Program-made: the position numbers and the translations under genes
The notes under the pieces: model-generated
The model's input: only the letters and a program-made list of their open reading frames with translations
The model's database searches: none
What the model was told of the DNA's origin: nothing
NCBI GenBank assembly: GCA_000991405.1
Contig: LBRL01000001.1
Span: forward strand, 379,200-443,199
DNA length: 64,000 nucleotides
Source of the DNA: Candidatus Nomurabacteria bacterium GW2011_GWD2_36_14
GTDB lineage: Bacteria; Patescibacteriota; Minisyncoccia; Phycocordibacterales; UBA9973
Direction: 5' to 3'
Part shown: positions 122-55,856 of the stretch, piece by piece
How the letters are laid out: every line of letters starts with the position of its first letter
Numbering within the stretch: position 1 is the stretch's first letter

Positions 122-1798
122 TTATATTACTTCATTCTGATAACACTTCTCACAATACACAATTTCAGGTCTATATGGAGCATATGAAGTTTCGAATTCA
201 TTTGTACACCCTTCTTTCATACACGACCGGTACCAGAGCTTATTGGGACCCCGAGATTTCATCCTTCTGTAATGTCTACAATCTGGGCAAAGTCTTGGAA
301 GAGGTACATTTAACTTTTTATAAAACAAAAATTCATTCGGTATTACCCTGTAATTCTTATTACAGGACTCACATATAAATACTTCTTTTGCAACATCAAA
401 ATCTATCTCCGAGAAACTTTCTGGCATTTGGTCTACTTTCTTGGTTTCTTTATTATAAGTCCCCCTTTCTGTATCTTCCCACCTAGAACCTTGTTTTATT
501 GCTTCATCTTTAGATAATGGAAATTGTTCATTTGCTGGGGTCTCGTTGTATCCAAAGCAAGATAAATGCTTGCCGAAGAATTGTCCATATTCTCCCTTAT
601 CTTTTAATTCACTTTTTATTTTACTTACAATTTCTTCATATTCTTCTTTCTCATATTGTTTATTTAAAATACAATAATTCTTTTTTCTCATTCCTACACA
701 CCCAAAACAATTGTTTGAATTAAAACAATACATTGAATACTCTACAAAAGAACAAGTCCAGCAAAGTGCATCACAAACCAGATTTGAATTATCAATACCT
801 GCGTTTATAGAGTTATATATACGTGAGACATTCCTACCTGCAGTATCGCAATCCATCGTGTCTTTGGCATTTCTCCATATATGTACTCCATACTTATTAT
901 CTTCTGCATCATAACAATGGAAACACGACTGACAATTCTTGGTATTCTTCATGTATGAACCAGTTGAATTAACCACTTGCATCACTTCCGCAAATTTACG
1001 AGGTTGCTTCTTTAGAAAATCTTCATACTTTTCTTTAAACATTTTAACCCCAGAATAAGTATCAAGCATTAAATCTTTCTTTATTTGTTCGTACTCTTCT
1101 TTGCTATATGACTCATTGAAAATATAATTACTTTTATTTCGTAAATTGATACAACCAATACAATCTGTGCAACCCTTACAATCAGTCAAAAAGTAACTCG
1201 TTGTACAATCATGACACCCTTTACTATATAAAAGTTTATAAGAATTGTAACAATCATCAGACTCATAAGTAAGCTCGCATTTTGAAGCAAAAGAAGTATC
1301 CACTACATCTCTGCACTCCTGAATCCAATATGAATGTATTGAATCTTCGTTGTTTGATGATTCTATAATGAAATAGCAATTCTTATTGTCGGCTGAAATA
1401 TTCGTATATTCACTGCCTGGACTACGCATATAAATAAGAGAAACCTTCGGAACAGATCTCCAAAGTTTTTCATATTGTTCAAAAAATGGAATATCTTTAT
1501 CATATTCAATTCCAAAATCTTCCCCTCCCCAATTGTCACTAAACCAACAATCGTAACACCAGACTTTAAAAGATTTATTGGGCGAATACATAGATACGAC
1601 ATCTTTTCCACATTTATCACAAGCTCTTTTATAGAAAGCTCTTTCATTACGAAAACTTAAACGTAATTGTGCTCTACAATCTGGACATGTATCAGGAGCA
1701 CATACTCTCATCTTCTCATAGAAAGAGAAATCATCCGGCTCAATAGTGAAGTCTTTCTTACAATTCTGACAATTCCTTTTTTCTTCTTTGTGTTCCAT
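122..1798 (-). CDS. Cysteine-rich multi-zinc-ribbon repeat protein (paralog A), function unknown
   Basis: 558 aa ORF with no signal peptide. Both termini carry a CxxC...CPDCR zinc-ribbon-like motif (F-x-I-x3-E-x2-F-Y-x-K-[ML]-x-V-P-x-P-x2-C-P-x-C-R). Internal repeated modules C-x-DC-x-GC-x-NLRNKSNYIFN-x-Y-x-KEEY and CFGCVGMRKKNYCILNKQYEKEEY. Clear paralog of the next ORF. Confidence 0.6.
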   Translation of the reverse strand: MEHKEEKRNCQNCKKDFTIEPDDFSFYEKMRVCAPDTCPDCRAQLRLSFRNERAFYKRACDKCGKDVVSMYSPNKSFKVWCYDCWFSDNWGGEDFGIEYDKDIPFFEQYEKLWRSVPKVSLIYMRSPGSEYTNISADNKNCYFIIESSNNEDSIHSYWIQECRDVVDTSFASKCELTYESDDCYNSYKLLYSKGCHDCTTSYFLTDCKGCTDCIGCINLRNKSNYIFNESYSKEEYEQIKKDLMLDTYSGVKMFKEKYEDFLKKQPRKFAEVMQVVNSTGSYMKNTKNCQSCFHCYDAEDNKYGVHIWRNAKDTMDCDTAGRNVSRIYNSINAGIDNSNLVCDALCWTCSFVEYSMYCFNSNNCFGCVGMRKKNYCILNKQYEKEEYEEIVSKIKSELKDKGEYGQFFGKHLSCFGYNETPANEQFPLSKDEAIKQGSRWEDTERGTYNKETKKVDQMPESFSEIDFDVAKEVFICESCNKNYRVIPNEFLFYKKLNVPLPRLCPDCRHYRRMKSRGPNKLWYRSCMKEGCTNEFETSYAPYRPEIVYCEKCYQNEVI

Positions 1799-1832: not shown

Positions 1833-3572
1833 CTATAATATCTCTCTCTTGTAACAATCATCACAGTATAAATTCCACCCATCCTTTGAATCATACGTCG
1901 TTATAATACTCTTTTCACACATATTACAAATACTACTATTCATTCTATAATCCCCCAAGTATTTATATCGATCTTTAATTCTTTTTATTTGATGAATATC
2001 AGGAAGAGGAATACTATGAATTCTATAAAATTCTAACTCCGATTCTGTAATGCGGAATGGTTTTCCTGTTTCTTTACACACAAGTGCTTTGGTAAGGATA
2101 TCATCTTCTACGTCATCAATATTGTCAGGAATATCTTCTGTTTTTACTAAATCCATACCCACTGCATTTGATTCAGTCTCTATTTGCCAAAGTCCGCCAA
2201 TTTTCTCTACTTCTTCTTTGCTCAACGGAAATACAAAATCAGAAGTTGATCCATTGTATGCATAAGTACTAAAAGGTAACGAGAAAAAATCTCCGTATTC
2301 TCCCTTTCGTAATAATGATGATTTAATTTTATCTAATTCTTTATAATATTCTTCCTTTTCATATTGACGATTAAAAATACAGTAATTCTTATTGTCTAAA
2401 CCAACACAAGCAAAACAATTATTTATATTCCTACAATTAATCAAAAGCTCTGATTCAGTAATAAACTTCGAAGCAAAGGAGAACTTCACGTTTGATGACT
2501 TGGACCCGACCGCAATGGTACTATAAAGTCTTTCAGATCCACCAGAAACTGCAGCGTCCATGGAATCATGATTTGCAATGACATTATCACAGTGTAAAAC
2601 GTGTGTTGATTTTACAGTGTCAAAAACATCATGACAATCTTTTGAATCTGAAATATTTGTTCCAGACACATTATTTACTCGCTCATGTCTCTCTGCTCTA
2701 ACTGGTTGTAATTTCACAAATTTCCAAAATTCTTCACTAATCTCTTTTATGGACTTTCTACTTTTTAAGTTTATATCTGAGATCTGTTTTCGATACTCTT
2801 CTTTGGTATATTGAACATTAAATATACAATTACTTTTATTTCTAAGATTCACACAACCAAAACAGTCAGTACAATTGTTGCAATCATACAGAAAGTTAGA
2901 GTCTATGCAGTTATCTGAGAAATATAAATATTTAGAGTTATAACATTTCTCACAAGAGACTATCTCATATGAATTCTCTCCAAAATGAACGAGTAACGAA
3001 TCCATAACATTACGAGAATCGTTCACAGTATTGCAATACCAAAGATTCTCTGAATTCCACCCTCCACTTACATAATACCCATTCTTTAAATTTCTACCAT
3101 TTATAGAATACTCACTGTTTATACTAGATGGATCTCGAATAATAGCAGGTTGAGGAACTCTCAATCTCAAATCCCAAAATTGATCTAAAAAAGTTTTTGA
3201 TTCATCATAAAAAGTTCCATAAGTATTTGAGTCAAAATTTTTAATATAACTATCTAAATCATAAACTATTAGTGGAGAAACTGGTGGTACAAAAGAAATT
3301 ATTTTACCCTCTTTTCCGGGAGCATTATTGTCTCTTTTGTATAAATTTATTGAGTTCACGAAAGCATAACGATTCATCCTCCTACATGTCGGACAATAGT
3401 TCGGTGTAGGTACCCGAAGCATTTTCAGGAATTCAATATCTTCCTTAGTTATATCAAATTCCCCTTCACAGTACTTGTGCTCTCCTTGCCACTTACATAC
3501 ACGCTTATGAGGCACCAAACTTTCAAATATCTTATCCAGAAGTGCATCAAATTGTGGGGTTTTTGTTTCCAT
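1833..3572 (-). CDS. Cysteine-rich multi-zinc-ribbon repeat protein (paralog B), function unknown
   Basis: 579 aa. Shares with 122..1798 the N-terminal F-x-I-x3-E-x2-F-[LY]-K-M-x-V-P-x-P-x2-CP-x-CR motif and the modules CNNCTDCFGCVNLRNKSNCIFNVQYTKEEY and CFACVGLDNKNYCIFNRQYEKEEY. The C-terminal ribbon is degenerate. Confidence 0.6.
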   Translation of the reverse strand: METKTPQFDALLDKIFESLVPHKRVCKWQGEHKYCEGEFDITKEDIEFLKMLRVPTPNYCPTCRRMNRYAFVNSINLYKRDNNAPGKEGKIISFVPPVSPLIVYDLDSYIKNFDSNTYGTFYDESKTFLDQFWDLRLRVPQPAIIRDPSSINSEYSINGRNLKNGYYVSGGWNSENLWYCNTVNDSRNVMDSLLVHFGENSYEIVSCEKCYNSKYLYFSDNCIDSNFLYDCNNCTDCFGCVNLRNKSNCIFNVQYTKEEYRKQISDINLKSRKSIKEISEEFWKFVKLQPVRAERHERVNNVSGTNISDSKDCHDVFDTVKSTHVLHCDNVIANHDSMDAAVSGGSERLYSTIAVGSKSSNVKFSFASKFITESELLINCRNINNCFACVGLDNKNYCIFNRQYEKEEYYKELDKIKSSLLRKGEYGDFFSLPFSTYAYNGSTSDFVFPLSKEEVEKIGGLWQIETESNAVGMDLVKTEDIPDNIDDVEDDILTKALVCKETGKPFRITESELEFYRIHSIPLPDIHQIKRIKDRYKYLGDYRMNSSICNMCEKSIITTYDSKDGWNLYCDDCYKREIL

Positions 3573-5352: not shown

Positions 5353-5775
5353 TTACTTCCTTCCAGTTGATCCAAAAGCCCCTTCCCCTCTATCTGACTC
5401 ACTCAATGTATCAGTTTCCTCCAACTCTGCAATAACCACTGGCACAATAACTAGTTGCGACACTTTGTCCCCCTCTTCTACAGTATATGGCTCACTTCCA
5501 AGATTTACAAGGTGAGTATTGTATTCACCTCTATATCCAGCATCAAACACTCCTCCCATATGTATCAACCCAGCCTTAGAAATACTAGACTTATCCATCA
5601 CAATTGCCGCATTCCCAACTGGGAACTCCATAGCAAAACCATGGAAGAATCTATAATGCTCCATGGGCTTGATGGTCACAGTCTCCATAGCATACAAGTC
5701 CATCCCCACATCCCCTGGGTGAGCATACTTGGGCAACTTGGCATTCTCTTTTAATTTTTTAATTTTAATATGCAT
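5353..5775 (-). CDS. dut: dUTP diphosphatase (dUTPase family; possibly dCTP/dUTP)
   Basis: 140 aa with dUTPase motifs: GVFDAGYRGEY (motif III) and C-terminal RGEGAFGSTGRK (motif V). Motif II is KSS instead of RSG. Confidence 0.8.
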   Translation of the reverse strand: MHIKIKKLKENAKLPKYAHPGDVGMDLYAMETVTIKPMEHYRFFHGFAMEFPVGNAAIVMDKSSISKAGLIHMGGVFDAGYRGEYNTHLVNLGSEPYTVEEGDKVSQLVIVPVVIAELEETDTLSESDRGEGAFGSTGRK

Positions 5776-5781
5776 ACTTTG

Positions 5782-6033
5782 TTAACACTTATAACCATTA
5801 CTAATCATATCATCAATTCCTCCACCATTTTTTACATTTTTAAATCCATTTTGCTCCATCATAGACTTGGCTATCGTTGCTCTGCTTCCTGATTCACAAT
5901 ATAAAATTATTTCTTCATCTTTTGGAATTTCAGGAAACTTGCCATACATCATATCCATAATATCGAAAAGTTCTGCATCCTTTATATGCCCATCGTCATA
6001 CTCTTCTTTTGTCCTTACATCTATAATTCTCAT
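5782..6033 (-). CDS. Single-domain rhodanese-like sulfurtransferase
   Basis: 83 aa. The active-site loop YCESGSRA carries the Cys. Typical small rhodanese. Confidence 0.65.
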   Translation of the reverse strand: MRIIDVRTKEEYDDGHIKDAELFDIMDMMYGKFPEIPKDEEIILYCESGSRATIAKSMMEQNGFKNVKNGGGIDDMISNGYKC

Positions 6034-6034
6034 A

Positions 6035-6739
6035 TTATTTTAATACCCTCCTTACCTCTTTATAAACCATATCATGTATTTGCTCACGAGAAAGTATTTC
6101 ACCTTTCTCTGAGCAACTTATTTTACTCCAGTTCGGTTGAGTCTTCGCAAGCCAGAGTGCGCTCTTGATAGAATTCTCCATAAACTTCTCGTCAGCTTCA
6201 TGTACATCTTTGTTCTTCTTTAGATACTTTCTCTTCATCTGACTACTTTCTCTATCATTGAGAAGCTTCATTACAATCTGTATTGGTAAACTTAAATACA
6301 AAGTTAGATCAGGCTTAGGAATACCAAATTCTTCATACTCCATCTGATTGAGCCACTTTATGAAATTATTTCGCTTTCTCGTATCACTTATTTTGCCACC
6401 TTGATGAATCTGATTAGCAGAAACGTAACGATTGGCTACTACTATGTATCCTTCTTTGAGCCACTTTTCCATTTCAGTTTTTGACTGCCATCTGTCTGCG
6501 GCAAAAAGTACGGAAGCAATCTTCGGATGAACATTTATGAAGTTATAGTATTGCTCAGAAAGACAATGCCCAACAAAAGCTCCAAAGAAATTCTTGTAAT
6601 ACTCAGGAAAGTCCACAACCTTTACTTTATATCCGTCTTTTTTAAGTCTGTCAGTGAGATAATTTACTTGTGTAGCCTTTCCACTTCCATCTGTCCCGTC
6701 TATTACGATAAGCTTGCCTTTAGTTTTTTGTTTTTTCAT
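6035..6739 (-). CDS. tmk: Thymidylate (dNMP) kinase family protein
   Basis: P-loop VIDGTDGSGKATQ, a DRY-like motif NRYVSANQIHQGG (E. coli DRHDLSTQAYQGG) and the LID-adjacent PDLTLYLSL (E. coli PDLTLYLDV). It has a C-terminal extension compared with E. coli Tmk. Confidence 0.75.
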   Translation of the reverse strand: MKKQKTKGKLIVIDGTDGSGKATQVNYLTDRLKKDGYKVKVVDFPEYYKNFFGAFVGHCLSEQYYNFINVHPKIASVLFAADRWQSKTEMEKWLKEGYIVVANRYVSANQIHQGGKISDTRKRNNFIKWLNQMEYEEFGIPKPDLTLYLSLPIQIVMKLLNDRESSQMKRKYLKKNKDVHEADEKFMENSIKSALWLAKTQPNWSKISCSEKGEILSREQIHDMVYKEVRRVLK

Positions 6740-6803
6740 AAGATAACCTCAATTATACCTAAAAATTACCCTATATCAAAATCCATTAAATATATACTAA
6801 TTT

Positions 6804-6845
6804 AAAATGACACAATCTCTGCTATAGCAGAGATTGTGTCATTTT
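6804..6845. promoter_or_regulatory. Perfect 19-bp-arm palindrome (AAAATGACACAATCTCTGC-TATA-GCAGAGATTGTGTCATTTT) in the divergent tmk / PaaX-like intergenic region; candidate operator
   Basis: Read directly from the sequence. It lies between divergently transcribed genes, so it is not needed as a terminator. Confidence 0.5.
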
Positions 6846-6863
6846 AATATTTAAGTTATAATT

Positions 6864-7346
6864 ATGTATATGTCTATCGTAAGTGAAATTTTAGAAGAAC
6901 TTTGGAATACAGAACTCAACTATAAGGGAGTTAGGGTTAATCTTTTTGGTATTCCCAGATTTAGTAAATATCCACAAAGAAGTATCCGAACAACAATGGA
7001 CCGATTAAAAAAGAAAGGGATTATAGAAAAAGAGTTGGCTGGAATAGTGCTTTCTAAATACGGGAAAGAATATGTGAAAAGAAAATATGATTCACTTAAG
7101 CAATTTGAAAATCCGGGAAATCTGTCTAAGGATAGAACTTTACTTGTGATGTTTGATATACCGACAGAGAAGAAATCTCATAGAGAATGGCTACGCTGGC
7201 ATTTGAAAAGGTTTAATTATGTTATGGTTCAGAAAAGCGCATGGGTAGGACCCTACCCTCTCCCAAAGGGATTCAATGAATACTTAAAAAGAATAAAACT
7301 AGATAAATGCATAAAAACTTTTAAATTAGATAAACCTTATAAGTAA
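6864..7346 (+). CDS. PaaX-like transcriptional regulator (wHTH plus Cas2-like PaaX effector domain)
   Basis: The N-terminal QRSIRTTMDRLKKKGIIEKE resembles the PaaX wHTH recognition helix and wing (TVRTALSRLVRDGWLE). The second half, LLVMFDIPTEKKSHREWLRWHLKRFNYVMVQKSAWVGPYP, matches the PaaX core motif (sVPE..R..Rd.lR..L.w.GFG.l...vW..P.P). It also resembles the Cas2 beta1-alpha1-beta2 pattern. Confidence 0.5.
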   Translation: MYMSIVSEILEELWNTELNYKGVRVNLFGIPRFSKYPQRSIRTTMDRLKKKGIIEKELAGIVLSKYGKEYVKRKYDSLKQFENPGNLSKDRTLLVMFDIPTEKKSHREWLRWHLKRFNYVMVQKSAWVGPYPLPKGFNEYLKRIKLDKCIKTFKLDKPYK

Positions 7347-7363
7347 ACTACATGATCTTAACT

Positions 7364-7417
7364 AAAACAAAATCTATACAAATTCTGCCATGGCAGAATT
7401 TGTATAGATTTTGTTTT
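7364..7417. terminator. Perfect 25-bp-arm palindrome / bidirectional intrinsic terminator between convergent genes
   Basis: AAAACAAAATCTATACAAATTCTGCC-ATGG-CAGAATTTGTATAGATTTTGTTTT is flanked by A and T runs. It lies between the PaaX-like gene (+) and a NUDIX gene (-). Confidence 0.6.
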
Positions 7418-7444
7418 GAATTTTTGAATTTAAATTAGTTACTT

Positions 7445-7876
7445 TTATTCTTTGTCGTAAAAGTTTTTGCCAGTTTTGTATGAATCAATAATTAATTCAC
7501 TTGGATAAAAAAGAGGTGAAGGTAGATTGTCTAATGAGTACCAATTCCACTCTCCTATTTTCTCATGATCATATGTTTTTGGTTCATTCTCTTTCCAATC
7601 AGCAAAAAGTCCGATCAAAATATCTTGACGATTTTCATGTCTACAATATGTAGAAGTAGAAAGATATTTAATATTTTCAATTTTAATTCCTGATTCTTCT
7701 AATGTTTCCCTTGTAGCACAATCTACAAAAGATTCTTGAAACTCTAAGTGCCCTCCTGGCATCGAGTACTCTCCCTGACCATGACTTCCCTTTCTTTTAC
7801 CAAGAAGAATCTTGCCTTCTTTCCAGATCATTACACCTACACATGGTTTTAATTTATGTCTTTCTCCTTCTACCAT
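7445..7876 (-). CDS. NUDIX hydrolase
   Basis: Nudix box GGHLEFQESFVDCATRETLEESGI (GX5EX7REUXEEXGU). Confidence 0.8.
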   Translation of the reverse strand: MVEGERHKLKPCVGVMIWKEGKILLGKRKGSHGQGEYSMPGGHLEFQESFVDCATRETLEESGIKIENIKYLSTSTYCRHENRQDILIGLFADWKENEPKTYDHEKIGEWNWYSLDNLPSPLFYPSELIIDSYKTGKNFYDKE

Positions 7877-7878
7877 AA

Positions 7879-8205
7879 TTAATTATGTGTCTCGTTCATT
7901 TTGTTAAAATCCCAATTTCTTTCTTTGTTTGATTCAATTTTTTTAAGAACTTCCTTTTCAATATCAATACCAAAAATTCCAGCTAAATGTAAAATTCTTT
8001 GTATTGCATCACCAAGCTCTTCTTTGAAACCATCCTTGCCATCAATATTTTTATGCCTATATGCCTCATAAGCCTCAGAGACTTCTGAGTGTATTAAGGC
8101 AATTTTTTCTCCAACATTTATTTCTTCTGGTTTTGTCCCAAAACCTTTTTCTTTAGCTTGTTCTAGTATTAATGAAGTTAGCTCTCTTAAATTTAAATTT
8201 TCCAT
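7879..8205 (-). CDS. MazG-like all-alpha NTP pyrophosphohydrolase (DCTPP1-like)
   Basis: 108 aa. EVSEAYEA...EELGDAIQRILHLAGIFGIDIEKEVLKKIESNKER matches the MazG/HisE-type EExxE/D metal-binding helices. Confidence 0.6.
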   Translation of the reverse strand: MENLNLRELTSLILEQAKEKGFGTKPEEINVGEKIALIHSEVSEAYEAYRHKNIDGKDGFKEELGDAIQRILHLAGIFGIDIEKEVLKKIESNKERNWDFNKMNETHN

Positions 8206-8207
8206 AA

Positions 8208-8687
8208 TTATTTTTCTCCTAATTCTTTTAATGCTTCTAGCGCATAAAATTTTACATTTGGAATAATTTCAATTTTATTTAAATCATCTGATGTCATCCA
8301 TTTCATCTCAACCCCTTTCTCATGTTCTAAGATTGATTCAGAAATTAAATCTGTCTTTGATTTTGCAAAATAAACAAAAACAACGTGTTCATGTTTATCG
8401 TTAACTGGATGTCTACCTAAGTATCTAGGTGGAATCAAATATTTATAATTCCTATTTTTATCATCCCCATTTAATGGACCATTTGATTCACCAATTATCT
8501 CTATATCAAGACCAACTTCTTCTTTTACTTCACGGATTGCTGCTTCAATTGGGTCCTCATCTAATTCAATATGACCACCAACAGAAAGCCAAAAACCAAG
8601 CTTATCATGAATACGTAAAAGAACCTTGTTTTTATACACAATAAAAACTTCTACGCAAAAATCAATTTTTTCATTAATATGGGGCAT
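8208..8687 (-). CDS. NUDIX hydrolase
   Basis: Nudix box GGHIELDEDPIEAAIREVKEEVGL. Confidence 0.8.
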   Translation of the reverse strand: MPHINEKIDFCVEVFIVYKNKVLLRIHDKLGFWLSVGGHIELDEDPIEAAIREVKEEVGLDIEIIGESNGPLNGDDKNRNYKYLIPPRYLGRHPVNDKHEHVVFVYFAKSKTDLISESILEHEKGVEMKWMTSDDLNKIEIIPNVKFYALEALKELGEK

Positions 8688-8690
8688 ATT

Positions 8691-9866
8691 TTATTTCCCT
8701 CTCAACACCTTATCCATCCTGACTGCAAGTTTGACCATGTCGGACTCTTTCTTGCCACGGGTAGTTTCGGCACAAGTGCCTAGGCGGATACCGGAAGGAT
8801 CCATAGGAGAGCGAGGGTCGCCAGGGATTGTGTTCATATTCACTATAATTCCTGCCTTTTCTAGCTTGTCACTTGCAATCTTGCCAGGAACTCCCTTCCC
8901 TTCCATCCATGTGTCCATAAGGATAAGGTGTGAGTCTGTACCGCCAGAGATAATATGCCAACCGAGCTTTTGTAATTCTTTAGCAAGAACTTTCGCGTTC
9001 TTCACGACTTGCTTGGCATACTTCTTGAATTCGGGCTTTGAAGCTTCTAGGAATGCTACAGCCGCAGCAGCGATACTGTTCTCGTGTGGGCCACCATAGA
9101 GTCCTGGGATTATCATCTTGTCTATTTTCTTATCGAATTCTCTTTCATCTTTCTTTACAAAGATTATCGCGTGTCTTGGACCACGAAGAGACTTGTGAGT
9201 TGTCGTCATGACAGAGTCTGCATATGGAAATGGAGATGGATATGCTCCACCAGCTACAAGACCTGCGAAGTGCGACATGTCAACATGAAGAAGTGCCCCT
9301 GATGCGTCGGCTATATCTCTAAACTTTTTGAAGTCTACAATTCTAGGATATGCAGTAAATCCACAGACTATAATGTCTGGCTTCTCTGCTATTGCAATTT
9401 TCTTCAATGCTTCATAGTCTATGACTTCTGTCTTCTTATCAAGTTCGTATTGTAAAGGTTTCCAAATCTTTCCTGTCATTGATGCTGGATGTCCGTGTGT
9501 AAGGTGCCCGCCTGAGGAAAGCTTCATTCCCATTATTTTCCCTCCAACTGGAACAAGTGCTGAGTAAAGTGCAAAGTTTGCTGGAGATCCTGAAAGAGGT
9601 TGGACATTTACATGCCACTCTGTAGGCTTAAGTTTGAAAAGCTTCAAAGCACGAGCAATTGCTAAATTCTCTACTTTATCTACCACCTGATTACCACCAT
9701 AGTATCTTCTTCCTGGATAACCTTCGGCGTACTTATTTGTAAGTTTGGAACCAAGAGCCTTCAATACATCGTCGGAAACAATGTTCTCTGAAGCTATTAA
9801 ATTCACGACACTCTTCTGACGCTTTTCCTCTTCCTTAATTAGTTTCTCTATTTGTTTATCTTTCAT
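8691..9866 (-). CDS. glyA: Serine hydroxymethyltransferase
   Basis: SHMT motifs: the PLP-lysine region TTTHKSLRGPRHA and N-terminal ASENIVSDDV...KYAEGYPGRRYYGG. Confidence 0.9.
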   Translation of the reverse strand: MKDKQIEKLIKEEEKRQKSVVNLIASENIVSDDVLKALGSKLTNKYAEGYPGRRYYGGNQVVDKVENLAIARALKLFKLKPTEWHVNVQPLSGSPANFALYSALVPVGGKIMGMKLSSGGHLTHGHPASMTGKIWKPLQYELDKKTEVIDYEALKKIAIAEKPDIIVCGFTAYPRIVDFKKFRDIADASGALLHVDMSHFAGLVAGGAYPSPFPYADSVMTTTHKSLRGPRHAIIFVKKDEREFDKKIDKMIIPGLYGGPHENSIAAAAVAFLEASKPEFKKYAKQVVKNAKVLAKELQKLGWHIISGGTDSHLILMDTWMEGKGVPGKIASDKLEKAGIIVNMNTIPGDPRSPMDPSGIRLGTCAETTRGKKESDMVKLAVRMDKVLRGK

Positions 9867-9923
9867 AATATGGTGATAAATTAGATTTGTAATAAGCTAA
9901 TTTTAGCACAATAAATAAAAACT

Positions 9924-9952
9924 AAAAAGCGAGCCAAAATGGCTCGCTTTTT
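9924..9952 (-). terminator. Intrinsic terminator hairpin downstream of the deaminase-like gene
   Basis: AAAAAGCGAGCC-AAAAT-GGCTCGCTTTTT. It is followed by a U-run on either strand. Confidence 0.55.
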
Positions 9953-9955
9953 ATC

Positions 9956-10492
9956 TTAATCAAACTTATGTTTTGTAATGTTATTTGGATCTTTCTCGTT
10001 AAAGAGAACTTCACTTCCTTCCATTACATAGACATTACGAATTGGAACTTCAATCATTTTACCCCAACAGTCTTTGCATGCCCACCAATGACCCCACAGA
10101 TACAAATCAAATTGATCGCTCTTGTCAAAACCCTGCTTAATCAATTTCTTAGAAGCTCTGTATTCAGCATGATGATCCCCAGCTGCACATCCGGGACATA
10201 ACCAATATTTCTTACCAGATGGAATTCCTAGAATTCTTCTGATACAATATTTTTTATGAAGATTAATTAAACCTTCACTTGTTAATGGTGCTTTATTTGC
10301 ATCTTTAGAAACAACAACGCTATCTCGACCCCGAACTATTACTGCCCCAGTAGAAGACCGCTTGTCTGTTGATTCCTTACGAGCAACTTCTTTGGCTTCT
10401 TGCATAAACTTATTATCTTTAGGCACATACAATATAGTTCGTCCTTCGGGTAAATAAGGATAGACTATCTCTTTTTTTATATTTGTTTCCAT
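9956..10492 (-). CDS. dCMP/cytidine deaminase-fold zinc enzyme (dCMP deaminase-like)
   Basis: The STGAVIVRGRDSVVV segment resembles the vGAVIV core strand of CDA-fold dCMP deaminases. HAE followed 28 aa later by ACKDC matches the H[AC]E...PCxxC zinc motif. There is an extra CPGC just before HAE, possibly a second zinc site as in T4 dCMP deaminase. Confidence 0.55.
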   Translation of the reverse strand: METNIKKEIVYPYLPEGRTILYVPKDNKFMQEAKEVARKESTDKRSSTGAVIVRGRDSVVVSKDANKAPLTSEGLINLHKKYCIRRILGIPSGKKYWLCPGCAAGDHHAEYRASKKLIKQGFDKSDQFDLYLWGHWWACKDCWGKMIEVPIRNVYVMEGSEVLFNEKDPNNITKHKFD

Positions 10493-10500
10493 AATTTGAA

Positions 10501-11370
10501 TTGTATTATATAATAGGAATTATGACAACATTTGACACAATATATAAAAATTTAATAAAGCGAATAATGGAGGAAGGTATTGAAGAATTAAACGAAAGAA
10601 CAGGTCACAAAATAAAGATATTACCCGGCTTAACTTTCCAGACTGACATCGAGAAAGATGGGTTCCCTGTATTAACATTGCGAAAGAATCCTATTAAGTC
10701 TCCCATAGCTGAACAAGTTTGGTTTATTACTGGAGACAAAGATACAGAATTTTTAAGAAAATATACAAAAATGTGGGATGAATTTATTGAAGAAGATGGC
10801 ACTATAACTTCTGCATATGGTTATAGATGGCGTCATCATTTCGGAAGAGATCAACTAGACCAGCTAGTAAAACATTTGACCGAAGAACCTCACTCACGGC
10901 AAGGAGTTATTGTTACTTGGGATCCTGCTGATGATGGGTTATATGGAAAAGGATTAAAAGCAACTTATAAGAAAAATGCACCTTGCCCCTTTGCTTTCAC
11001 TATTAACATAATTGGAGGAAGACTTCATCTTCATAACATAGTTCGCTCAAACGACATGATGCTTGGCTGTCCTTTTGATACATTTGGTTTTAGTCTTATG
11101 ATGTGTGCCCTTGCTCAAAAGCTTGGAGTAAAGCCAGGAATATATACCCATACAATTTCGAATGCGCATATATATGACAATCATTACGAAGGAGCAAGAG
11201 AGCTTATAAAAAGAGAAAATGATCACCCTAATATATATCCCGTATTCCCTGCTGATATTTATGACCGAGCAGAGAGAAAAGATGAGACACTAGTTGATGA
11301 AATTTATCAATCTTTTAAACCATTTTTTAATCCAAGTGAACCGATAGAGGGATTAGATATAGTAAAATAA
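10501..11370 (+). CDS. Thymidylate synthase (ThyA) family enzyme carrying an Asp at the nucleotide-specificity position; predicted dCMP methyltransferase/hydroxymethylase or divergent TS
   Basis: The stretch RSNDMMLGCPFDTFGFSLMMCALAQ...SNAHIYDNH aligns gaplessly with E. coli ThyA [25 protein letters not shown]...GDTHLYSNH. The catalytic Cys sits in PCP (canonical PCH). E. coli N177 is replaced by D (PFDTFG), and D205 is replaced by N. Confidence 0.8.
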   Translation: MYYIIGIMTTFDTIYKNLIKRIMEEGIEELNERTGHKIKILPGLTFQTDIEKDGFPVLTLRKNPIKSPIAEQVWFITGDKDTEFLRKYTKMWDEFIEEDGTITSAYGYRWRHHFGRDQLDQLVKHLTEEPHSRQGVIVTWDPADDGLYGKGLKATYKKNAPCPFAFTINIIGGRLHLHNIVRSNDMMLGCPFDTFGFSLMMCALAQKLGVKPGIYTHTISNAHIYDNHYEGARELIKRENDHPNIYPVFPADIYDRAERKDETLVDEIYQSFKPFFNPSEPIEGLDIVK

Positions 11371-11373
11371 TTT

Positions 11374-11898
11374 ATGATTCTATCAATAATCTCAGCCATA
11401 GCAAATAATAATGAAATTGGAAGGAAGAATGAACTTCTATGTGATTTGCCTATCGATATGAAGCACTTCAGAGGAACAACTTCTGGACACCCAGTAATAA
11501 TGGGGCAAAGAACCTTTGAATCTCTCGGAACATCTCCAGATGGTAGTCTTGGTCGCCCTCTTCCAAATAGAAGAAACATAATACTTACTCTTGATAAAAA
11601 TTTCAAAAGAGAAGGAATAGAAATATATAATTCTATCGAAGATCTAGAAAAATCTTTAACTGAAACCATGGGGAAAGATGAGGAAGCATTTATCATAGGT
11701 GGAGGACAGATATATAAACTCTTCATAGACAAAGCAGATAGGTTATATATCACCCACGTAAATGCAGACTTCCCGGATGCTGATACTTTCTTCCCTGTTA
11801 TAGATAAAGATAAATGGAAAATTGTCTCCGAAGATAAACACGAGAAAGATGAACAAAATATATACGATTGTAATTTTGTAATATACGAAAGAAAATAA
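11374..11898 (+). CDS. folA: Dihydrofolate reductase
   Basis: The N-terminus MILSIISAIANNNEIGRKNELLCDLPIDMKHFRGTTSGHPVIMGQRTFESLG is typical of DHFR. It follows the ThyA-like gene in a classic operon arrangement. Confidence 0.85.
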   Translation: MILSIISAIANNNEIGRKNELLCDLPIDMKHFRGTTSGHPVIMGQRTFESLGTSPDGSLGRPLPNRRNIILTLDKNFKREGIEIYNSIEDLEKSLTETMGKDEEAFIIGGGQIYKLFIDKADRLYITHVNADFPDADTFFPVIDKDKWKIVSEDKHEKDEQNIYDCNFVIYERK

Positions 11899-11901
11899 AA
11901 T

Positions 11902-11938
11902 AAAAATCTCCGCTAGGTTTTGCCTAGCGGAGATTTTT
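11902..11938. terminator. REP-like hairpin / bidirectional terminator (AAAAATCTCCGCTAGG-TTTTG-CCTAGCGGAGATTTTT)
   Basis: Perfect 16-bp stem between convergent folA (+) and a MazG-like gene (-). It belongs to a hairpin family that recurs at 25705 and 27539. Confidence 0.6.
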
Positions 11939-11945
11939 ATTTTAT

Positions 11946-12275
11946 TTATGGATCTATATCTGTCTTAACTCTAATAAAGACATCTTCACCATCTGGTGAC
12001 TTTGTCTTTATATATTTACGGTTTTTATTTATTTCTATTTTCCTTACTAATTCTTTTTCTAAATCATAACCAAGTATTTCACACATACCAAGAAGAAAAA
12101 CTGCAACATCTGCAAATTCTTCTGCTACTCCGTCTTGATTTTTATTAAACTTAGAAAATGCCTCAGAAAGTTCCTCGTATGCTCGACAAAACTCCAATGC
12201 TACATCTGTAGTATTGAAACCCTTCTCAAGCTTATTCCTCATTACTTCCTTTTGTAATTCTTTTAAATCTACCAT
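11946..12275 (-). CDS. MazG-like all-alpha NTP pyrophosphohydrolase (second paralog)
   Basis: 109 aa. ELSEAFSKF...EEFADVAVFLLGMCEILGYDLEKELVRKIEINKNRKY parallels the 7879..8205 product. Confidence 0.6.
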   Translation of the reverse strand: MVDLKELQKEVMRNKLEKGFNTTDVALEFCRAYEELSEAFSKFNKNQDGVAEEFADVAVFLLGMCEILGYDLEKELVRKIEINKNRKYIKTKSPDGEDVFIRVKTDIDP

Positions 12276-21364: not shown

Positions 21365-22504
21365 TTATTTATGATATTTACCCACTGCTTCACTTACACT
21401 CTTGTATCCATCCTTTCGTAAAAGCTTCGCTAGGTCTCTATTGATCTTGCCTATGACACTTGGACCTTCGTATATCATGCCGGTGATCATTTGCACAAGA
21501 CTTGCTCCTCTTTTGATCTTCTCATAAGCATCTTTACCTGTGAAGATTCCTCCGCATCCTATAATTATAAATCTATCTTTGTATTTCTTGTAAACTTCAC
21601 TTATCAGATTATTGGAAAATTCTTCGGTAGGTTTACCGCTAAAGTTCCCCTTCCCTGCATTCTTTATTTCCGTCTGATCAAAGCAAGCATTTTCTCGATT
21701 CTTGACCAAGTTGGACATTATGACTCCTGATATCCACTTGTATTTATCTGCCACAGCAAGCAGTGCTAAAGTCTCTGCCACGCTTTTCTCGGCGTGCATT
21801 TTTATAAACAAAGGTTTGTTGATATTCAAGTATGAAAGCTTATTTAGAAGAATTGCGAATCCGACAGGATCATCGAACTTCTCTTTCAAGTTCTCAACAT
21901 TTATAAGATTCGGGCAACTTATATTGAGTTCATAATAATCAAAATAATTCACCTTCAAAGCAAGCTCAAAGGAAAGGTAGACGTCATCGGCCATATCCTC
22001 TATCTTTTTATAAGCTCTATTGGTCGCACCAATACTGAGTCCTAGGGGTATAGTACCCGCCTCTTCGGACTGATGCCGCCCTCGAGGCGACTCCTTAATT
22101 TTCTTTAATACAGCCTCCATGCCCATACTTTTGAAACCTTTGTTTACAAGCAAAGACTTGGACTTGGGAAGTCGTCCGAGCATAGGTCTTGGATTGCCGG
22201 CATAAGGTAAGTGGGTTACAGTCCCAATAGTATGAAAACCGAAACCAACAGAAGGAAGTACTTCTATCAGATCAGCATCGTAGTCAAAGCCAGCCGAAAG
22301 ACCGACCGGATTGGTGAAATTAATACCAGCAACTTTTGTATTTAATACAGAATCTTTGTAAGGCAAAATCTTACTAAGTAAATTTTTAGTAAAATTTATA
22401 CTACCTAAAAGCCTTCCTCTCTTTAAGAAAAAGGTATGAACATCATCCGCAGGGAATTTGAAAAGTATGGGTTTAATAATTTTCTTATAGATAAATCCAA
22501 TCAT
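21365..22504 (-). CDS. pyrD: Dihydroorotate dehydrogenase (quinone)-like, PyrD class 2 family
   Basis: N-terminal membrane-association helix region plus the C-terminal FMN-binding motif IIGCGGIFTGKDAYEKIKRGASLVQMITGMIYEGP. Confidence 0.65.
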   Translation of the reverse strand: MIGFIYKKIIKPILFKFPADDVHTFFLKRGRLLGSINFTKNLLSKILPYKDSVLNTKVAGINFTNPVGLSAGFDYDADLIEVLPSVGFGFHTIGTVTHLPYAGNPRPMLGRLPKSKSLLVNKGFKSMGMEAVLKKIKESPRGRHQSEEAGTIPLGLSIGATNRAYKKIEDMADDVYLSFELALKVNYFDYYELNISCPNLINVENLKEKFDDPVGFAILLNKLSYLNINKPLFIKMHAEKSVAETLALLAVADKYKWISGVIMSNLVKNRENACFDQTEIKNAGKGNFSGKPTEEFSNNLISEVYKKYKDRFIIIGCGGIFTGKDAYEKIKRGASLVQMITGMIYEGPSVIGKINRDLAKLLRKDGYKSVSEAVGKYHK

Positions 22505-24927: not shown

Positions 24928-25593
24928 TCATTCCACTTTATAATCTGTAAAAATTGTAAATAATGGAACACTCTTCAGTATTTGTGCTGGCTCTTCGTCG
25001 ATAGATACGTCAGTCGCCAGCTTCTCTATTGCTGGCCATTTATTCTCTCCTACTGCGTAGAGTACTGCTTCATCGAGCATCTTGATAGTCTTCCCTGTTA
25101 TGGTCATACGATCATGTAAGTCCGTCTCGTATGTGCACACCAACTCTTCGCTCTTTACCGCTTCTGTATGAGGTAGGATACCTGCAGTATGACCGTCTAT
25201 ACCTATCCCGAAAATTCCAATTTTATATTCTGCATTTTTCAATTCCTCTGATAAAGCTTCTCTTATATCTTCTGTCGTTTCCTTCATGTCCTTTCCAGAG
25301 AGGAATGGTATTATCTTGGCTTTCAGTATCCTAAATCCAGAATTTGTAAGCTTGAACCAATTGGATTCAGGATGTCCAAGATGACCAAATCTTTCATCAC
25401 ATAGTGTTACAACTAACGTCCCTGATAAGCTTATATCTATCTTGTCAGCAATTTTCACTTCTACGGGAATAGCCGAGCCACCAGAAACAAACCAGAGAAC
25501 CTTCTTCCCTTGTTTTAGCTTTTCGTTTATAGATGAGGATACAAACTCCACTACCTCTTCTATGTCTTTAATTGTTTTAATATTTAAATTCAT
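24928..25593 (-). CDS. pgl: 6-phosphogluconolactonase (glucosamine-6-P isomerase/Pgl family)
   Basis: LWFVSGGSAIPV motif. It sits in an operon with zwf and gnd. Confidence 0.7.
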   Translation of the reverse strand: MNLNIKTIKDIEEVVEFVSSSINEKLKQGKKVLWFVSGGSAIPVEVKIADKIDISLSGTLVVTLCDERFGHLGHPESNWFKLTNSGFRILKAKIIPFLSGKDMKETTEDIREALSEELKNAEYKIGIFGIGIDGHTAGILPHTEAVKSEELVCTYETDLHDRMTITGKTIKMLDEAVLYAVGENKWPAIEKLATDVSIDEEPAQILKSVPLFTIFTDYKVE

Positions 25594-36751: not shown

Positions 36752-37189
36752 TTAATATTGTTTTATAAATCTTACTTCATCAGATAACACTTTGCCTTCT
36801 TTAAAATCATTAAATATTTTCTCTGGTAAGAATTTTATATCTTCATCTCTACTCTTCCAGCAAATTTCAGATAGTTCAAACGCATGAGTACGATTAACAT
36901 TTTCTAAATCTAAATAATCTTTACCATTTTTAACTTCAAATATAAAATCCAGACATTGTTCTGTTCCTTTTAAAATAAAATTATTTACATATAATAACCT
37001 TCCAATTTTAGGTTTAATACCCAATTCTTCAACAAGCTCTCTTTCCAAACACTCTTCTATCCCCTCATTAAAATCCAGCTTACCTCCCGGTAAACAATAA
37101 AAATTATTATGGGGCATTTTAACAAGAAGAAATTTATCATCGTGCAAAATAATACCCCTTACTGTAATTGATAATTTATTTAATTCCAT
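36752..37189 (-). CDS. NUDIX hydrolase
   Basis: Nudix box GGKLDFNEGIEECLERELVEELGI. Confidence 0.75.
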   Translation of the reverse strand: MELNKLSITVRGIILHDDKFLLVKMPHNNFYCLPGGKLDFNEGIEECLERELVEELGIKPKIGRLLYVNNFILKGTEQCLDFIFEVKNGKDYLDLENVNRTHAFELSEICWKSRDEDIKFLPEKIFNDFKEGKVLSDEVRFIKQY

Positions 37190-37206
37190 AATTTTATTAT
37201 ACTTCT

Positions 37207-37524
37207 TTATTTAAATTCAAACAAAACGTCTCTGAAATTCACAATCCTATTGTTCTTATCTAGCTTAATCCCCTCCTTTTTGTACAGGGCGAACCTTTTC
37301 TTCTTATACTCATCATTTATCCAGACTTTCCCATCTGCATATACAATCCGGTGGAATGGAATATTCTTCACCCCTGCCATATGCGCCTTCCCTAAAATAT
37401 TCGTAATACTCTGCGAGGCCATAGGCCCTGCCCCCGCTGCCCGCGCAATTCTACCATAAGTAGTGACTCTACCTTTTGGAATGGCTAATGCTATTTTGAT
37501 AACACGGTCAGAGAAAGTAAGCAT
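37207..37524 (-). CDS. Alkyltransferase-like protein (ATL; MGMT/Ogt DNA-binding domain lacking the catalytic cysteine)
   Basis: 105 aa. IPKGRVTTYGRIARAAGAGPMASQSITNILGKAH...IPFHRIV matches the MGMT HTH and PCHRV active-site context, with Phe replacing the Cys (PFHRI). Confidence 0.6.
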   Translation of the reverse strand: MLTFSDRVIKIALAIPKGRVTTYGRIARAAGAGPMASQSITNILGKAHMAGVKNIPFHRIVYADGKVWINDEYKKKRFALYKKEGIKLDKNNRIVNFRDVLFEFK

Positions 37525-37560
37525 AAATTAATTAACAAAATAACAGTTAAAAACCCTGAT

Positions 37561-38241
37561 TTAAATTAAAGCTATTAATCTAATTGGCGATTCTGTCCCA
37601 TCTTTTATTTTCATTGGTAATACGAAACTTTTTGCCCCGATTGGTGGTAATTCTTTTGCGTTTGCAATGTTCTCTACGAGGTATTTATCAGCACCTAGGA
37701 TTGCATTATGAACAGGAAATCCATTTGTACCAGTATCAGCAGAAAGAGTATCAATACCTATCCCTGCTATGTCTCTCTTTAAAAGAAGTTCTGCGGTAGA
37801 GACATCTACACTAGGGAATTTATGATCATTATTGTACTTTTCTCTGTCGTCCCAATATTTGTCCCAGCCAGTATAAAAAATAACAAAGCTATTTGGCTTT
37901 ATTTCCCCGTGTTCTTTTTCAAATTTCTCAACAACCTCTGGTAATACTATATAATCTTCGCCTGCTTCCGCACTAACATCAATAACTATGCAGTCAGTCA
38001 CCAATTCCTCTAAAGAAAGCTTGTCTATTGTCCTCCCATTTGGAATGACATGTGCAGGTGCATCCATGTGTGTTCCTATCCCTGCCCCACATTTTATTTT
38101 CTGTACACGAAATAGATTTGGAGATATACAATCTTTATAATCAGTACCAATAGACAATTCAAAACCGCAACTTCCATCCCAAGTCGGAATTTCAGACGAG
38201 AGTTGGTGAGTAAGATCTACTAATTTAAATTCTTTATTCAT
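37561..38241 (-). CDS. Cyclase family protein (kynurenine formamidase KynB-like)
   Basis: Metal-binding motif GAGIGTHMDAPAHV (HxGTHxDxPxH). Confidence 0.7.
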   Translation of the reverse strand: MNKEFKLVDLTHQLSSEIPTWDGSCGFELSIGTDYKDCISPNLFRVQKIKCGAGIGTHMDAPAHVIPNGRTIDKLSLEELVTDCIVIDVSAEAGEDYIVLPEVVEKFEKEHGEIKPNSFVIFYTGWDKYWDDREKYNNDHKFPSVDVSTAELLLKRDIAGIGIDTLSADTGTNGFPVHNAILGADKYLVENIANAKELPPIGAKSFVLPMKIKDGTESPIRLIALI

Positions 38242-38337
38242 GATACTAGTATATCAAAATAACAGCTAAAAATCCTAGCTAGCTGGGCCACTGTTGGAAG
38301 TTATTAAAGATATAACAGGAAGAATCTTTACTATGAT

Positions 38338-38700: not shown

Positions 38701-38778
38701 ATTTCAATTATAGCAAAATAACCACCCAAAACCCTAGCTGGCTATCTAAGTAATACTGAAATCTATTTAAAAATGATC

Positions 38779-39744: not shown

Positions 39745-39746
39745 AA

Positions 39747-40334: not shown

Positions 40335-40358
40335 GATTTTATTATACCAAGATAATGA

Positions 40359-41015: not shown

Positions 41016-41043
41016 AATTTGATTATATACGATATTTCAAAAA

Positions 41044-41879: not shown

Positions 41880-41944
41880 AATTTTATTATATCAAAGTTC
41901 CAAAGTGATAAACAGGTACTAAAAATTTGCCTTATAAATAAAGC

Positions 41945-42511: not shown

Positions 42512-42538
42512 AAAAATTTAAATGACAATCTAATATGT

Positions 42539-55797: not shown

Positions 55798-55856
55798 ATA
55801 TAAATATATCTTAACATAATTTAAATATTTTACCCAAAATGATTTGGGTTTGATTG

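Follow-up and report, generated by a model that had tools for sequence, protein, structure and literature searches.

A 64,000-nucleotide stretch of the Candidatus Nomurabacteria bacterium GW2011_GWD2_36_14 genome (assembly GCA_000991405.1, contig LBRL01000001.1, forward-strand positions 379,200 to 443,199), hereafter the window, contains at positions 5353-12275 a cluster of twelve genes that includes a homologue of the thymidylate synthase (TS) ThyA, a divergent zinc deaminase, dihydrofolate reductase (DHFR), serine hydroxymethyltransferase (SHMT) and two small MazG-like nucleoside triphosphate (NTP) pyrophosphatases. The textbook cellular routes to thymidylate are those of ThyA and ThyX, both of which start from dUMP. 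With moderate confidence, we read the core of the cluster as a cellular counterpart of the 5-methyl-dC nucleotide module of Xp12, the classical phage in which 5-methylcytosine (5mC) replaces cytosine, and as the route by which this organism would make its thymidylate, with dCMP methylated first and deaminated afterwards. An earlier sequence-only reading of the DNA had suggested either modified dCTP for the genome or a path from dCMP through 5-methyl-dCMP to dTMP, and the comparative evidence described here favors the second of these outputs.

The ThyA homologue carries much of this evidence. When it is aligned to solved thymidylate synthases with HMMER, its segment RSNDMMLGCPFD falls on RSADIFLGVPFN and an Asp occupies the position of E. 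coli Asn177, so that the dCMP-specificity Asp named in the sequence-only reading was correctly identified. Asn177, which hydrogen-bonds to O4/N3 of dUMP and is the criterion of a dUMP-specific ThyA (EC 2.1.1.45), is absent. The N177D change in the E. coli enzyme and the N229D change in that of L. casei switch TS from dUMP to dCMP and yield 5-methyl-dCMP (Hardy & Nalivaika 1992, Liu & Santi 1992, summarised in PMC8670742). The motif could be located in 118 of the 120 nearest homologues, every one of which has the Asp, and a position-mapped test found the Asp in 76 of the 76 scorable ThyA genes from the 80 syntenic loci described below. It co-varies in the window protein with a signature comprising H147P, W83F, R127Q, one insertion and one deletion. 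In a search of 1.84 billion cluster representatives (50% identity), of which the best 150 were scored, 126 were of the Asp type, with Phe for W83, Gln or His for R127 and mostly Pro for H147, while the 17 of the Asn type all kept His147 and Arg127 and in 16 cases Trp83. These patterns suggest that the Asp-type proteins form a distinct subfamily. Since the catalytic residues and the 3′-OH ligands H207 and Y209 are kept in the window protein (catalytic Cys146, R21, E58, Y94, R166 and D169 are all conserved with them), the substrate should be a 2′-deoxynucleotide and the chemistry TS-like. The proposal that this enzyme is directed to dCMP is supported by the Asp, by the signature and by its affinity to the Xp12 enzyme, and we predict that it is a dCMP 5-methyltransferase that converts dCMP and 5,10-methylene-tetrahydrofolate (CH2-THF) to 5-methyl-dCMP and dihydrofolate (DHF).

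The most likely start codon of this gene is the ATG at 10522 rather than the TTG at 10501, because the product of 282 residues then matches the length of its homologues. A function as a MilA-like CMP hydroxymethylase was considered and rejected, given the retained 3′-OH ligands and a gene context of dNTP metabolism. Asp-type ThyA domains also occur in natural fusions: with a PF00383 deaminase (P0254, L085:8001-9302, 433 residues), with a PRA-PH/MazG-like domain (P0312, 424 residues) and with an HNH endonuclease (P0269, 432 residues). The deaminase-TS fusion lies near a ribonucleotide reductase gene on a 58-kb contig, and a 210-kb contig is also on record.

The affinity to Xp12 emerged from several searches. 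In a tblastn search of 50,697 phage records the best matches to the window ThyA were Xp12, PaMx74, PaMx28 and AAT-1, with further matches in related Achromobacter and Xanthomonas phages. By BLASTP the Xp12 TS scored 185 bits (35% identity, E 1e-61), compared with 108 bits for E. coli ThyA and 38.5 bits (21% identity over 147 residues) for T4 gp42, whose query sequence had been verified against PDB entry 1B49; structures of gp42 were not among the best 60 PDB matches. Judged by sequence, the Xp12 dCMP methylase is the closest characterised relative of the window ThyA. The Xp12 TS and five of the seven other Asp-type TS that were tested made 5-methyl-dC in vivo in a study that considers viral contigs only (bioRxiv 10.1101/2024.12.05.627091). 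In both Xp12 and PaMx74, genes for a MazG/PRA-PH-type NTP pyrophosphohydrolase, TS, a dCMP-deaminase-family protein and DHFR lie side by side. The literature on the Candidate Phyla Radiation (CPR) treats thyA-folA as canonical, and in our literature search we found no report of an Asp-type ThyA, or of such a module, in CPR or any other cellular genome.

The arrangement of the window genes is widely conserved. We scanned one genome per GTDB species for the deaminase family, which matched 286 species, and examined the best 80 loci, all of which are Patescibacteria except for one short contig labelled Flavobacteriaceae. That 5.9-kb contig (L084, JBLHIK010000027.1, labelled 'Flavobacteriaceae bacterium') encodes the deaminase, ThyA(Asp), SHMT and the thymidylate kinase homologue Tmk and is most likely a mis-binned Patescibacteria contig. 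The genes for ThyA and the deaminase are arranged head-to-head in all but two of the 80 loci (78/80), and those two loci are truncated. For the 48 loci with at least 3 kb on both sides, profile searches within 3.5 kb found ThyA in 48/48, DHFR in 47/48, a pyrophosphatase of one of two kinds in 47/48, SHMT in 29/48 and Tmk in 26/48, and a true Dut was present within 8 kb in 19/48. SHMT lies directly downstream of the deaminase in 24 of the 80 loci and Tmk in 13. The conserved core consists of the deaminase, ThyA, DHFR and one NTP pyrophosphatase, with SHMT, Tmk and Dut as frequent neighbors. This check for conservation in relatives, for which the sequence-only reading had called, supports through synteny the functional tie it drew between ThyA, the deaminase, DHFR, SHMT and an NTP pyrophosphatase, and the notion of a compact cluster holds for the core over 80 species-level genomes. 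It does not hold for the other genes: NUDIX-A was found in 3/48 loci, NUDIX-B in 0/48 (2/80 overall), the rhodanese in 0/48 and the PaaX-like gene in 6/48, at varying positions, so these counts led us to exclude all four genes from the module, and the supposed dedicated regulator is not borne out.

The deaminase belongs to a family of its own. Its catalytic motifs H108-x-E110 and C139-x-x-C142 do not vary across 45 sequences, nor does a second cluster made up of H79, C83 and C99-P-G-C102; the extra CxxC reported earlier is real, and the H79/C83/C99/C102 cluster looks like a structural zinc site that would hold a putative second Zn. A PDB search with the single sequence returned only a spurious nanobody match, while a profile of the 45 sequences led to the dCMP deaminases 2hvv and 4p9c (S. 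mutans and cyanophage S-TIM5) with E about 1e-5. Against the dCMP-deaminase equivalog TIGR02571 the protein scores 15.9 where 219 is required, and it is not a canonical ComEB/DCTD. When its AlphaFold (AF2) model (pLDDT 81) was searched with Foldseek, TadA, PBCV-1 bi-DCD and T4 Cd came up with low scores (TM about 0.4-0.46); weak matches of this kind, obtained for this protein and for the second MazG-like protein (TM about 0.4-0.5), confirm the fold and say nothing on specificity. In the phage study, 5mC-selective deaminases were sought among PF00383 proteins whose genes lie in cis to one for an Asp177 ThyA, and the activity is reported to be polyphyletic (bioRxiv 10.1101/2024.12.05.627091); the head-to-head arrangement in 78 of the 80 loci is precisely of this type. 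We predict that the protein is a 5-methyl-dC nucleotide deaminase that produces a dT nucleotide. Relatives of the CPR-type deaminase, with 34-40% identity, are also encoded on five IMG/VR contigs (L088-L092, 6.7-42.6 kb), three of which carry an adjoining ThyA homologue 45-59% identical to that of the window. In all three homologues a Pro follows the catalytic Cys, and the Asp was confirmed in one of them. These contigs could represent either CPR phages or CPR DNA that was mis-binned, and the presence on them of the deaminase with ThyA(Asp) makes exchange with CPR phages likely.

The fourth core component takes one of two forms. In the window it is MazG-like copy 2 (MazG2), which, like copy 1, falls just under the Pfam gathering score (GA; Table 1). 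Its PDB matches are 1vmg, 4qgp and the MazZ structure 7ody, and its acidic motifs E35/E38 and E52/E53/D56 are invariant. The AF2 model has four helices and weak fold matches (E about 0.1) to 1vmg (SSO MazG), 7mu5 (human DCTPP1) and 5ie9 (Bacillus MazG). The two copies are paralogues (35% identity, BLASTP E 4e-15); relatives have a single MazG-like gene, on the folA side, and copy 1 is by this comparison a lineage-specific paralogue. A MazG-like gene stands beside folA in 28 of the 80 loci. In 40 others (within L031-L083, for example L042 and L072) a gene for a protein of about 200 residues related to dCTP deaminase (Dcd) lies between thyA and folA instead. The two kinds never occur together in a locus, and one or the other accounts for the 47 of 48 given above. 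The Dcd-like protein passes the TIGR02274 dCTP deaminase model (122.8 against 92.8), yet in 40 of 40 loci a Pro takes the place of its catalytic Glu (E138 in E. coli; part of 'TLE' in the enzymes from M. tuberculosis and B. halodurans), and the motif that precedes the lost Glu, 'VDSGYEGQL', resembles Dut motif 3. The Glu-to-Pro variant also turns up on an unrelated contig, where its gene (L085:9335-9973(-)) is the neighbor of the one for the deaminase-TS fusion. A tblastn search of phage genomes with the Dcd-like protein found only generic Dcd/Dut proteins of archaeal viruses and enterobacterial phages and no functional precedent.

Because two unrelated NTP-pyrophosphatase folds swap at one position, a common function is indicated, and the Dcd scaffold points to a cytosine nucleotide as the substrate. 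The Dcd-like protein is probably a Dcd-fold dCTP pyrophosphatase, apparently uncharacterised, and MazG2 is predicted to be a dCTP (or 5-methyl-dCTP) pyrophosphatase. The reaction of both partners would be dCTP -> dCMP + PPi or, less likely, 5-methyl-dCTP -> 5-methyl-dCMP. The T-even dCTPase gp56 has a DCTPP1/MazG-like fold (PMC13326640). MazG2 itself is far more conserved than its neighbors: 38 contigs carry a copy with 100% identity, and the protein is at least 83% identical across 120 clusters, whereas the best cluster representatives for ThyA and the deaminase reach 91% and 93%, respectively. At its C-terminus MazG2 carries a conserved beta-hairpin extension (…KSPDGKDIFIRVKTDIDP), which is missing from the paralogue at 7879-8205.

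The kinase completes the set. Tmk aligns best with the eukaryote-type thymidylate kinases (TMPKs) of human, yeast and Candida, and its 'LFAADRW' corresponds to 'LFSANRW' of human TMPK (F72/R76), so that the Phe/Arg pair that contacts thymine is kept, as is 'NRY'. Since the Arg that binds O4 of thymine is retained, we read Tmk as a likely true dTMP kinase and not as a 5-methyl-dCMP kinase; the protein looks ordinary, and not like the promiscuous, gp1-like dNMP kinase that had been proposed.

These components suggest the following scheme. The MazG-like protein in the window, or the Dcd-like protein lacking the deamination Glu in other Paceibacteria, would convert dCTP to dCMP. The Asp177-type ThyA would then carry out a reductive methylation of dCMP with 5,10-methylene-THF, giving 5-methyl-dCMP and dihydrofolate, and DHFR from the same operon together with SHMT would regenerate the folate cofactor. 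The CDA-fold deaminase would convert a 5-methyl-dC nucleotide to a dT nucleotide, most likely 5-methyl-dCMP to dTMP, which Tmk would phosphorylate to dTDP. Dut would separately keep dUTP low, and dUMP would never be an intermediate. Deamination at the monophosphate level is favored by the adjacency of the deaminase and tmk in 13 of the 80 loci together with the thymine-contacting pair of Tmk; the alternative is that 5-methyl-dCTP is deaminated, as by the phage-context enzyme mSCD-B5. The presence of DHFR in the thyA operon implies a DHF product, which fits methylation and does not fit hydroxymethylation. The scheme parallels the canonical Dcd -> Dut -> ThyA route except that methylation and deamination trade places, and this swap would explain together the change of Asn to Asp in ThyA, the change of Glu to Pro in the Dcd-like protein and the new deaminase family. 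We further infer that no canonical ThyA or ThyX is encoded elsewhere in the genome and that the DNA itself stays unmodified.

Several observations weigh against this scheme. We were unable to find a second TS homologue or the ThyX motif RHRxxSxxxxSxR in the window, but the search covered 64 kb of a genome of about 800 kb. A genuine Dut is retained and makes dUMP, for which the scheme has no consumer. The window ThyA has Gln in place of R127, which binds phosphate in TS. The model of MazG2 and its fold matches are weak, and dCTP, 5-methyl-dCTP and dUTP are all candidate substrates for the MazG-like and Dcd-like proteins. Between the CPR deaminase family and the Xp12 deaminase there is only a remote relationship (hhalign probability 14%); with kinship to the phage deaminases so distant, the substrate of the CPR enzyme is deduced from pathway logic alone. 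The only characterised 5mC-selective deaminase of such a context, mSCD-B5, acts on 5-methyl-dCTP and not on 5-methyl-dCMP (bioRxiv 10.1101/2024.12.05.627091). More generally, all of the substrate specificities, as well as the phosphorylation level at which deamination would take place, are read from sequence and gene context.

The strongest of the alternatives, which we consider possible but improbable, is that the organism has an Xp12-like 5mC genome. In that case 5-methyl-dCMP would be phosphorylated to 5-methyl-dCTP, whose incorporation would put 5mC in place of much or all of the genomic C, the pyrophosphatase would clear dCTP and the deaminase would divert part of the 5-methyl-dC pool to dT. 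This possibility is supported by a gene set equal to that of phages with 5mC for C, by a dCTP-type pyrophosphatase that is obligatory in the module, as gp56 is in T-even phages, and by the relatives of the CPR-type deaminase beside ThyA(Asp) on IMG/VR contigs; Illumina-based metagenomics would not reveal 5mC. However, no conserved 5-methyl-dCMP kinase was found in the module, whose only kinase keeps the thymine-specific Arg, and the conserved neighbors Tmk and Dut fit the supply of dTTP. To our knowledge no cellular organism with wholesale base replacement exists, which also counts against this explanation. Base-composition and k-mer checks for a footprint of 5mC deamination gave no signal either way, the observed/expected ratios in the window being 0.68 for CpG, 1.02 for TpG and 0.98 for CpA.

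An ordinary thymidylate cycle, in which the deaminase converts dCMP to dUMP, ThyA methylates dUMP despite the Asp, DHFR, SHMT, Dut and Tmk act in their usual capacities and the pyrophosphatases perform general house-cleaning, seems unlikely to us. Each gene does have a canonical counterpart in the dUMP cycle, with Dut nearby; the ThyA homologue conserves the catalytic Cys, R21, R166, D169, Y94, H207 and Y209 and exceeds the cut-off of the older TIGR03284 thym_sym model (118.4 against 108.35), and public annotations read 'thymidylate synthase'. The same protein falls far below the cut-offs of the NCBIfam ThyA equivalogs (150.6 against 327 for NF002497 and 142.6 against 327 for NF002495), groups with the verified Xp12 dCMP methylase and has, in all 76 scorable loci, the established dCMP determinant in place of N177. 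In addition, the Dcd-like partner has lost the Glu that it would need to supply dUTP or dUMP, and the deaminase is not of the canonical ComEB/DCTD type (15.9 against 219).

It is very unlikely that the ThyA homologue is a T4-like dCMP hydroxymethylase, acting for hydroxymethyl-dC DNA or another hydroxymethyl-pyrimidine, as the sequence-only reading had leaned towards in its comparison with T-even phages. The Asp at the N177 position is common to the window protein and T4 gp42 (Asp179), and the cluster looks similar to the T4 list in its dCTPase-like, deaminase, DHFR and kinase genes. The closest analogue is nevertheless the 5-methyl-dC module of Xp12, as the scores of 185 and 38.5 bits (the latter 21% identity over 147 residues) indicate. 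Hydroxymethylation needs no oxidation of THF to DHF, yet DHFR is encoded in the same operon in 47 of 48 loci, and the window contains no glycosyltransferase or other enzyme that would follow up hydroxymethyl-dC. Least probable of all is a recent phage or prophage cassette without a role in host metabolism: although the nearest characterised relatives of ThyA are phage enzymes and a few IMG/VR contigs carry the deaminase-ThyA pair, the family occurs in 286 species-level genomes with stable local gene order, the core lies between ribosomal-protein genes in a relative and beside argS in a window of uniform GC content, there are no integrase or phage structural genes nearby, and the deaminase is unrelated to that of Xp12 beyond the fold. 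A simple phage-cassette origin of the whole module was rejected on the hhalign probability of only 14% against the Xp12 deaminase.

All twelve open reading frames (ORFs) listed earlier were found where they had been placed and every domain call was reproduced by Pfam and NCBIfam profile searches of the window proteins, so that the gene inventory stands (Table 1). The assignment to a cellular genome was also borne out: the locus is part of a cellular CPR chromosome and not of a phage. In a 75%-identical relative the core of deaminase, ThyA, DHFR and MazG-like protein is flanked by ribosomal-protein genes. Positions 1946-22275 of the window match, at 100% identity, a section of an 800,830-bp Nomurabacteria metagenomic scaffold and a 266,964-bp Joint Genome Institute (JGI) contig, and the closest homologues are listed publicly under Candidatus Nomurabacteria, Paceibacterota and Patescibacteria. 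GC content along the window is uniform at about 0.30-0.42. The window also codes for ArgRS, whose gene adjoins the cluster, CTP synthase and a dihydroorotate dehydrogenase-like protein, and no integrase or phage structural genes were found near the module.

Table 1. Genes, transcription units and DNA elements of the cluster. Scores are in bits, followed by the cut-off where one applies; strand "." marks elements of both strands.
Feature	Position	Strand	Evidence or remarks
Dut, trimeric dUTPase	5353-5775	-	TIGR00576 117.8 vs cut-off 102.55; NF001862 110.9 vs 103
Rhodanese	5782-6033	-	Pfam/NCBIfam domain call
Tmk-like, type-I (eukaryote-like) thymidylate kinase	6035-6739	-	PF02223 E 4e-20; TIGR00041 79.6 vs 83.25
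PaaX_M/Cas2-like protein	6864-7346	+	Domain match only to PaaX_M/Cas2-like
NUDIX hydrolase A	7445-7876	-	PF00293 E 2e-19
MazG-like copy 1	7879-8205	-	PF12643 20.3 vs GA 27; PF03819 weak; PDB match 1vmg
NUDIX hydrolase B	8208-8687	-	PF00293 E 3e-14; 3 bp after SHMT
SHMT	8691-9866	-	PF00464 E 2e-153
Terminator-like hairpin after deaminase stop, before SHMT	9923-9953	-	14-bp stem, 6 GC pairs, T tail
CDA-fold zinc deaminase, divergent, 178 aa	9956-10492	-	PF00383 32.8 vs GA 25
Deaminase/thyA divergent intergenic region, 29 bp	10493-10521	.	TATAAT and AGGA; promoter-like sites on both strands
ThyA homologue	10522-11370 (or 10501 start)	+	PF00303 E 7.4e-55, residues 14-244
DHFR	11374-11898	+	PF00186 E 3.5e-54
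Bidirectional intrinsic-terminator-like hairpin, folA/mazG2	11898-11942	.	20-bp stem, 7 GC pairs, T-runs on both strands
MazG-like copy 2 (MazG2), 109 aa	11946-12275	-	PF12643 25.2 vs GA 27
thyA-folA unit		+	3-bp gap; ends at bidirectional terminator common with convergent mazG2
Deaminase unit		-	Followed by terminator-like hairpin 9923-9953
SHMT-NudB-MazG1-NudA unit		-	Gaps 2-3 bp; ends at perfect 54-bp palindrome 7364-7417
tmk-rhodanese-dut-argS unit		-	Gaps 1-19 bp

The transcription units in Table 1 were drawn from gene spacing and hairpins. The spacing suggests that the NUDIX genes and MazG1 are probably co-transcribed with SHMT in the window lineage, although neither NUDIX nor MazG1 is a conserved part of the module. 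An inverted-repeat scan of the whole window found only two perfect palindromes, at 6802-6847 (46 bp) and 7364-7417 (54 bp). They are related to each other (…CTGC(T/C)AT|AT(A/G)GCAG…) and flank the PaaX_M/Cas2-like gene exactly, the first lying between the best-scoring tmk promoter and the start codon of the paaX-like gene. The palindromes could be an operator, an insulating terminator or the sign of a mobile insertion of the PaaX-like gene.

Further features were noticed elsewhere in the window. A dihydroorotate-dehydrogenase-family protein is encoded at 21365-22504 (-) and a 6-phosphogluconolactonase-like protein at 24928-25593 (-), and the ORFs that separate these two resemble by eye glucose-6-phosphate dehydrogenase and 6-phosphogluconate dehydrogenase; these genes suggest some pyrimidine and pentose-phosphate capacity despite the CPR status of the organism. 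A run of nucleotide and small-molecule genes at 36752-44482 comprises NUDIX proteins (36752-37189 and 39747-40334), NADAR (41044-41538), HEPN (41945-42511) and LOG/SLOG family (43748-44482) proteins, a cyclase-family protein, an aldo/keto reductase and a peptidase S51, and is followed by CTP synthase at 44611-46284. Directly downstream of argS, two adjoining CxxC-rich ORFs of 558 and 579 residues (122-1798 (-) and 1833-3572 (-)) have no Pfam match and look paralogous. A DpnI-family endonuclease (Dam-replacing, m6A-dependent, GATC; PF06044 E 1e-73 plus DpnI_C) adjoins a Bro-N protein (54184-54951 (-) and 54955-55917 (-)), and GATC is under-represented in the window with an observed/expected ratio of 0.58.

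If the proposed scheme is true, it would be a third cellular thymidylate route, free of uracil nucleotides and so far seen only in phages, and a very large bacterial lineage, with the deaminase in at least 286 Patescibacteria species-level genomes, would methylate dCMP first and deaminate it after. Thousands of CPR genes annotated as 'thymidylate synthase', 'dCMP deaminase' and 'dCTP deaminase' would then need re-annotation. The enzymology has a phage precedent and is already known (Xp12; bioRxiv 10.1101/2024.12.05.627091); what would be new is its use for housekeeping in cells, the first such case, together with a separate deaminase family and a hitherto unnoticed Dcd-like partner that lacks the Glu. 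Two enzyme variants appear to be uncharacterised, namely the predicted Zn2-type 5-methyl-dC deaminase and the Dcd-fold protein without the catalytic Glu, and 5mC-selective deaminases are currently sought for methylome sequencing. The scheme is also relevant to the question of where ultra-small symbionts of minimal metabolism get their dTTP, and to the exchange of genes between them and their phages. Should the 5mC-genome alternative be the true one, these would be the first cells with a wholesale non-canonical base, and episymbionts that feed on host nucleic acids could tell their own DNA from that of the host.

Among known systems, the Xp12/PaMx74 module is the most similar, its four functional components matching the window core, with DHFR adjacent in both. 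Their ThyA proteins have in common Asp177, a PCP motif, WDxF, a 'DPA(D/E)DGL...G' insertion before the catalytic Cys and a deletion after Y94 that leaves a shortened 'YGYRWR-HFGRDQ' segment. In Xp12, T is proposed to arise by deamination of 5-methyl-dC nucleotides (bioRxiv 10.1101/2024.12.05.627091), as we propose here. Unlike that of Xp12, the window locus is chromosomal and conserved across a whole class of Patescibacteria, its deaminase is of another, highly divergent lineage with the extra invariant His/Cys3 cluster and is transcribed divergently from thyA, its pyrophosphatase is a minimal MazG of 109 residues, replaced in other genomes by the Dcd-like protein with Glu changed to Pro, and SHMT, Tmk and Dut are linked to it. 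Xp12 DNA carries 5mC, whereas the window module is known from its genes alone. The T4 module (gp56, gp42, gp1, cd, frd, td) follows the same logic from dCTP to dCMP to a C5-modified dCMP, and in it gp42 likewise has Asp at the pyrimidine-specificity position and the dCTPase is likewise MazG/DCTPP1-like. T4, however, has a separate td for dTMP and no need of DHFR for gp42, while the window kinase is of the thymine type rather than gp1-like and the window lacks glucosyltransferases.

The canonical ThyA-FolA-GlyA cycle, which Dcd/Dut or a dCMP deaminase supplies, uses the same folds (TS, DHFR, SHMT, the dUTPase superfamily, a CDA-fold deaminase and Tmk), has the same thyA-folA operon layout and reaches the same net conversion of a dC nucleotide to dTMP. 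The proposed route differs from it in that methylation would precede deamination and no dUMP intermediate would be formed; the TS has Asp for Asn177 and the Dcd-like partner lacks the Glu needed for deamination. In mammals, DCTD, an enzyme of the dCMP-deaminase fold, deaminates salvaged 5-methyl-dCMP to dTMP, and the MazG-like DCTPP1 hydrolyses 5-methyl-dCTP. There, 5mC nucleotides end as T and not in DNA, which resembles the route proposed here; the mammalian salvage is a side-path of sanitation, whereas that of the window would be a main biosynthetic path that runs through a dedicated dCMP methylase.

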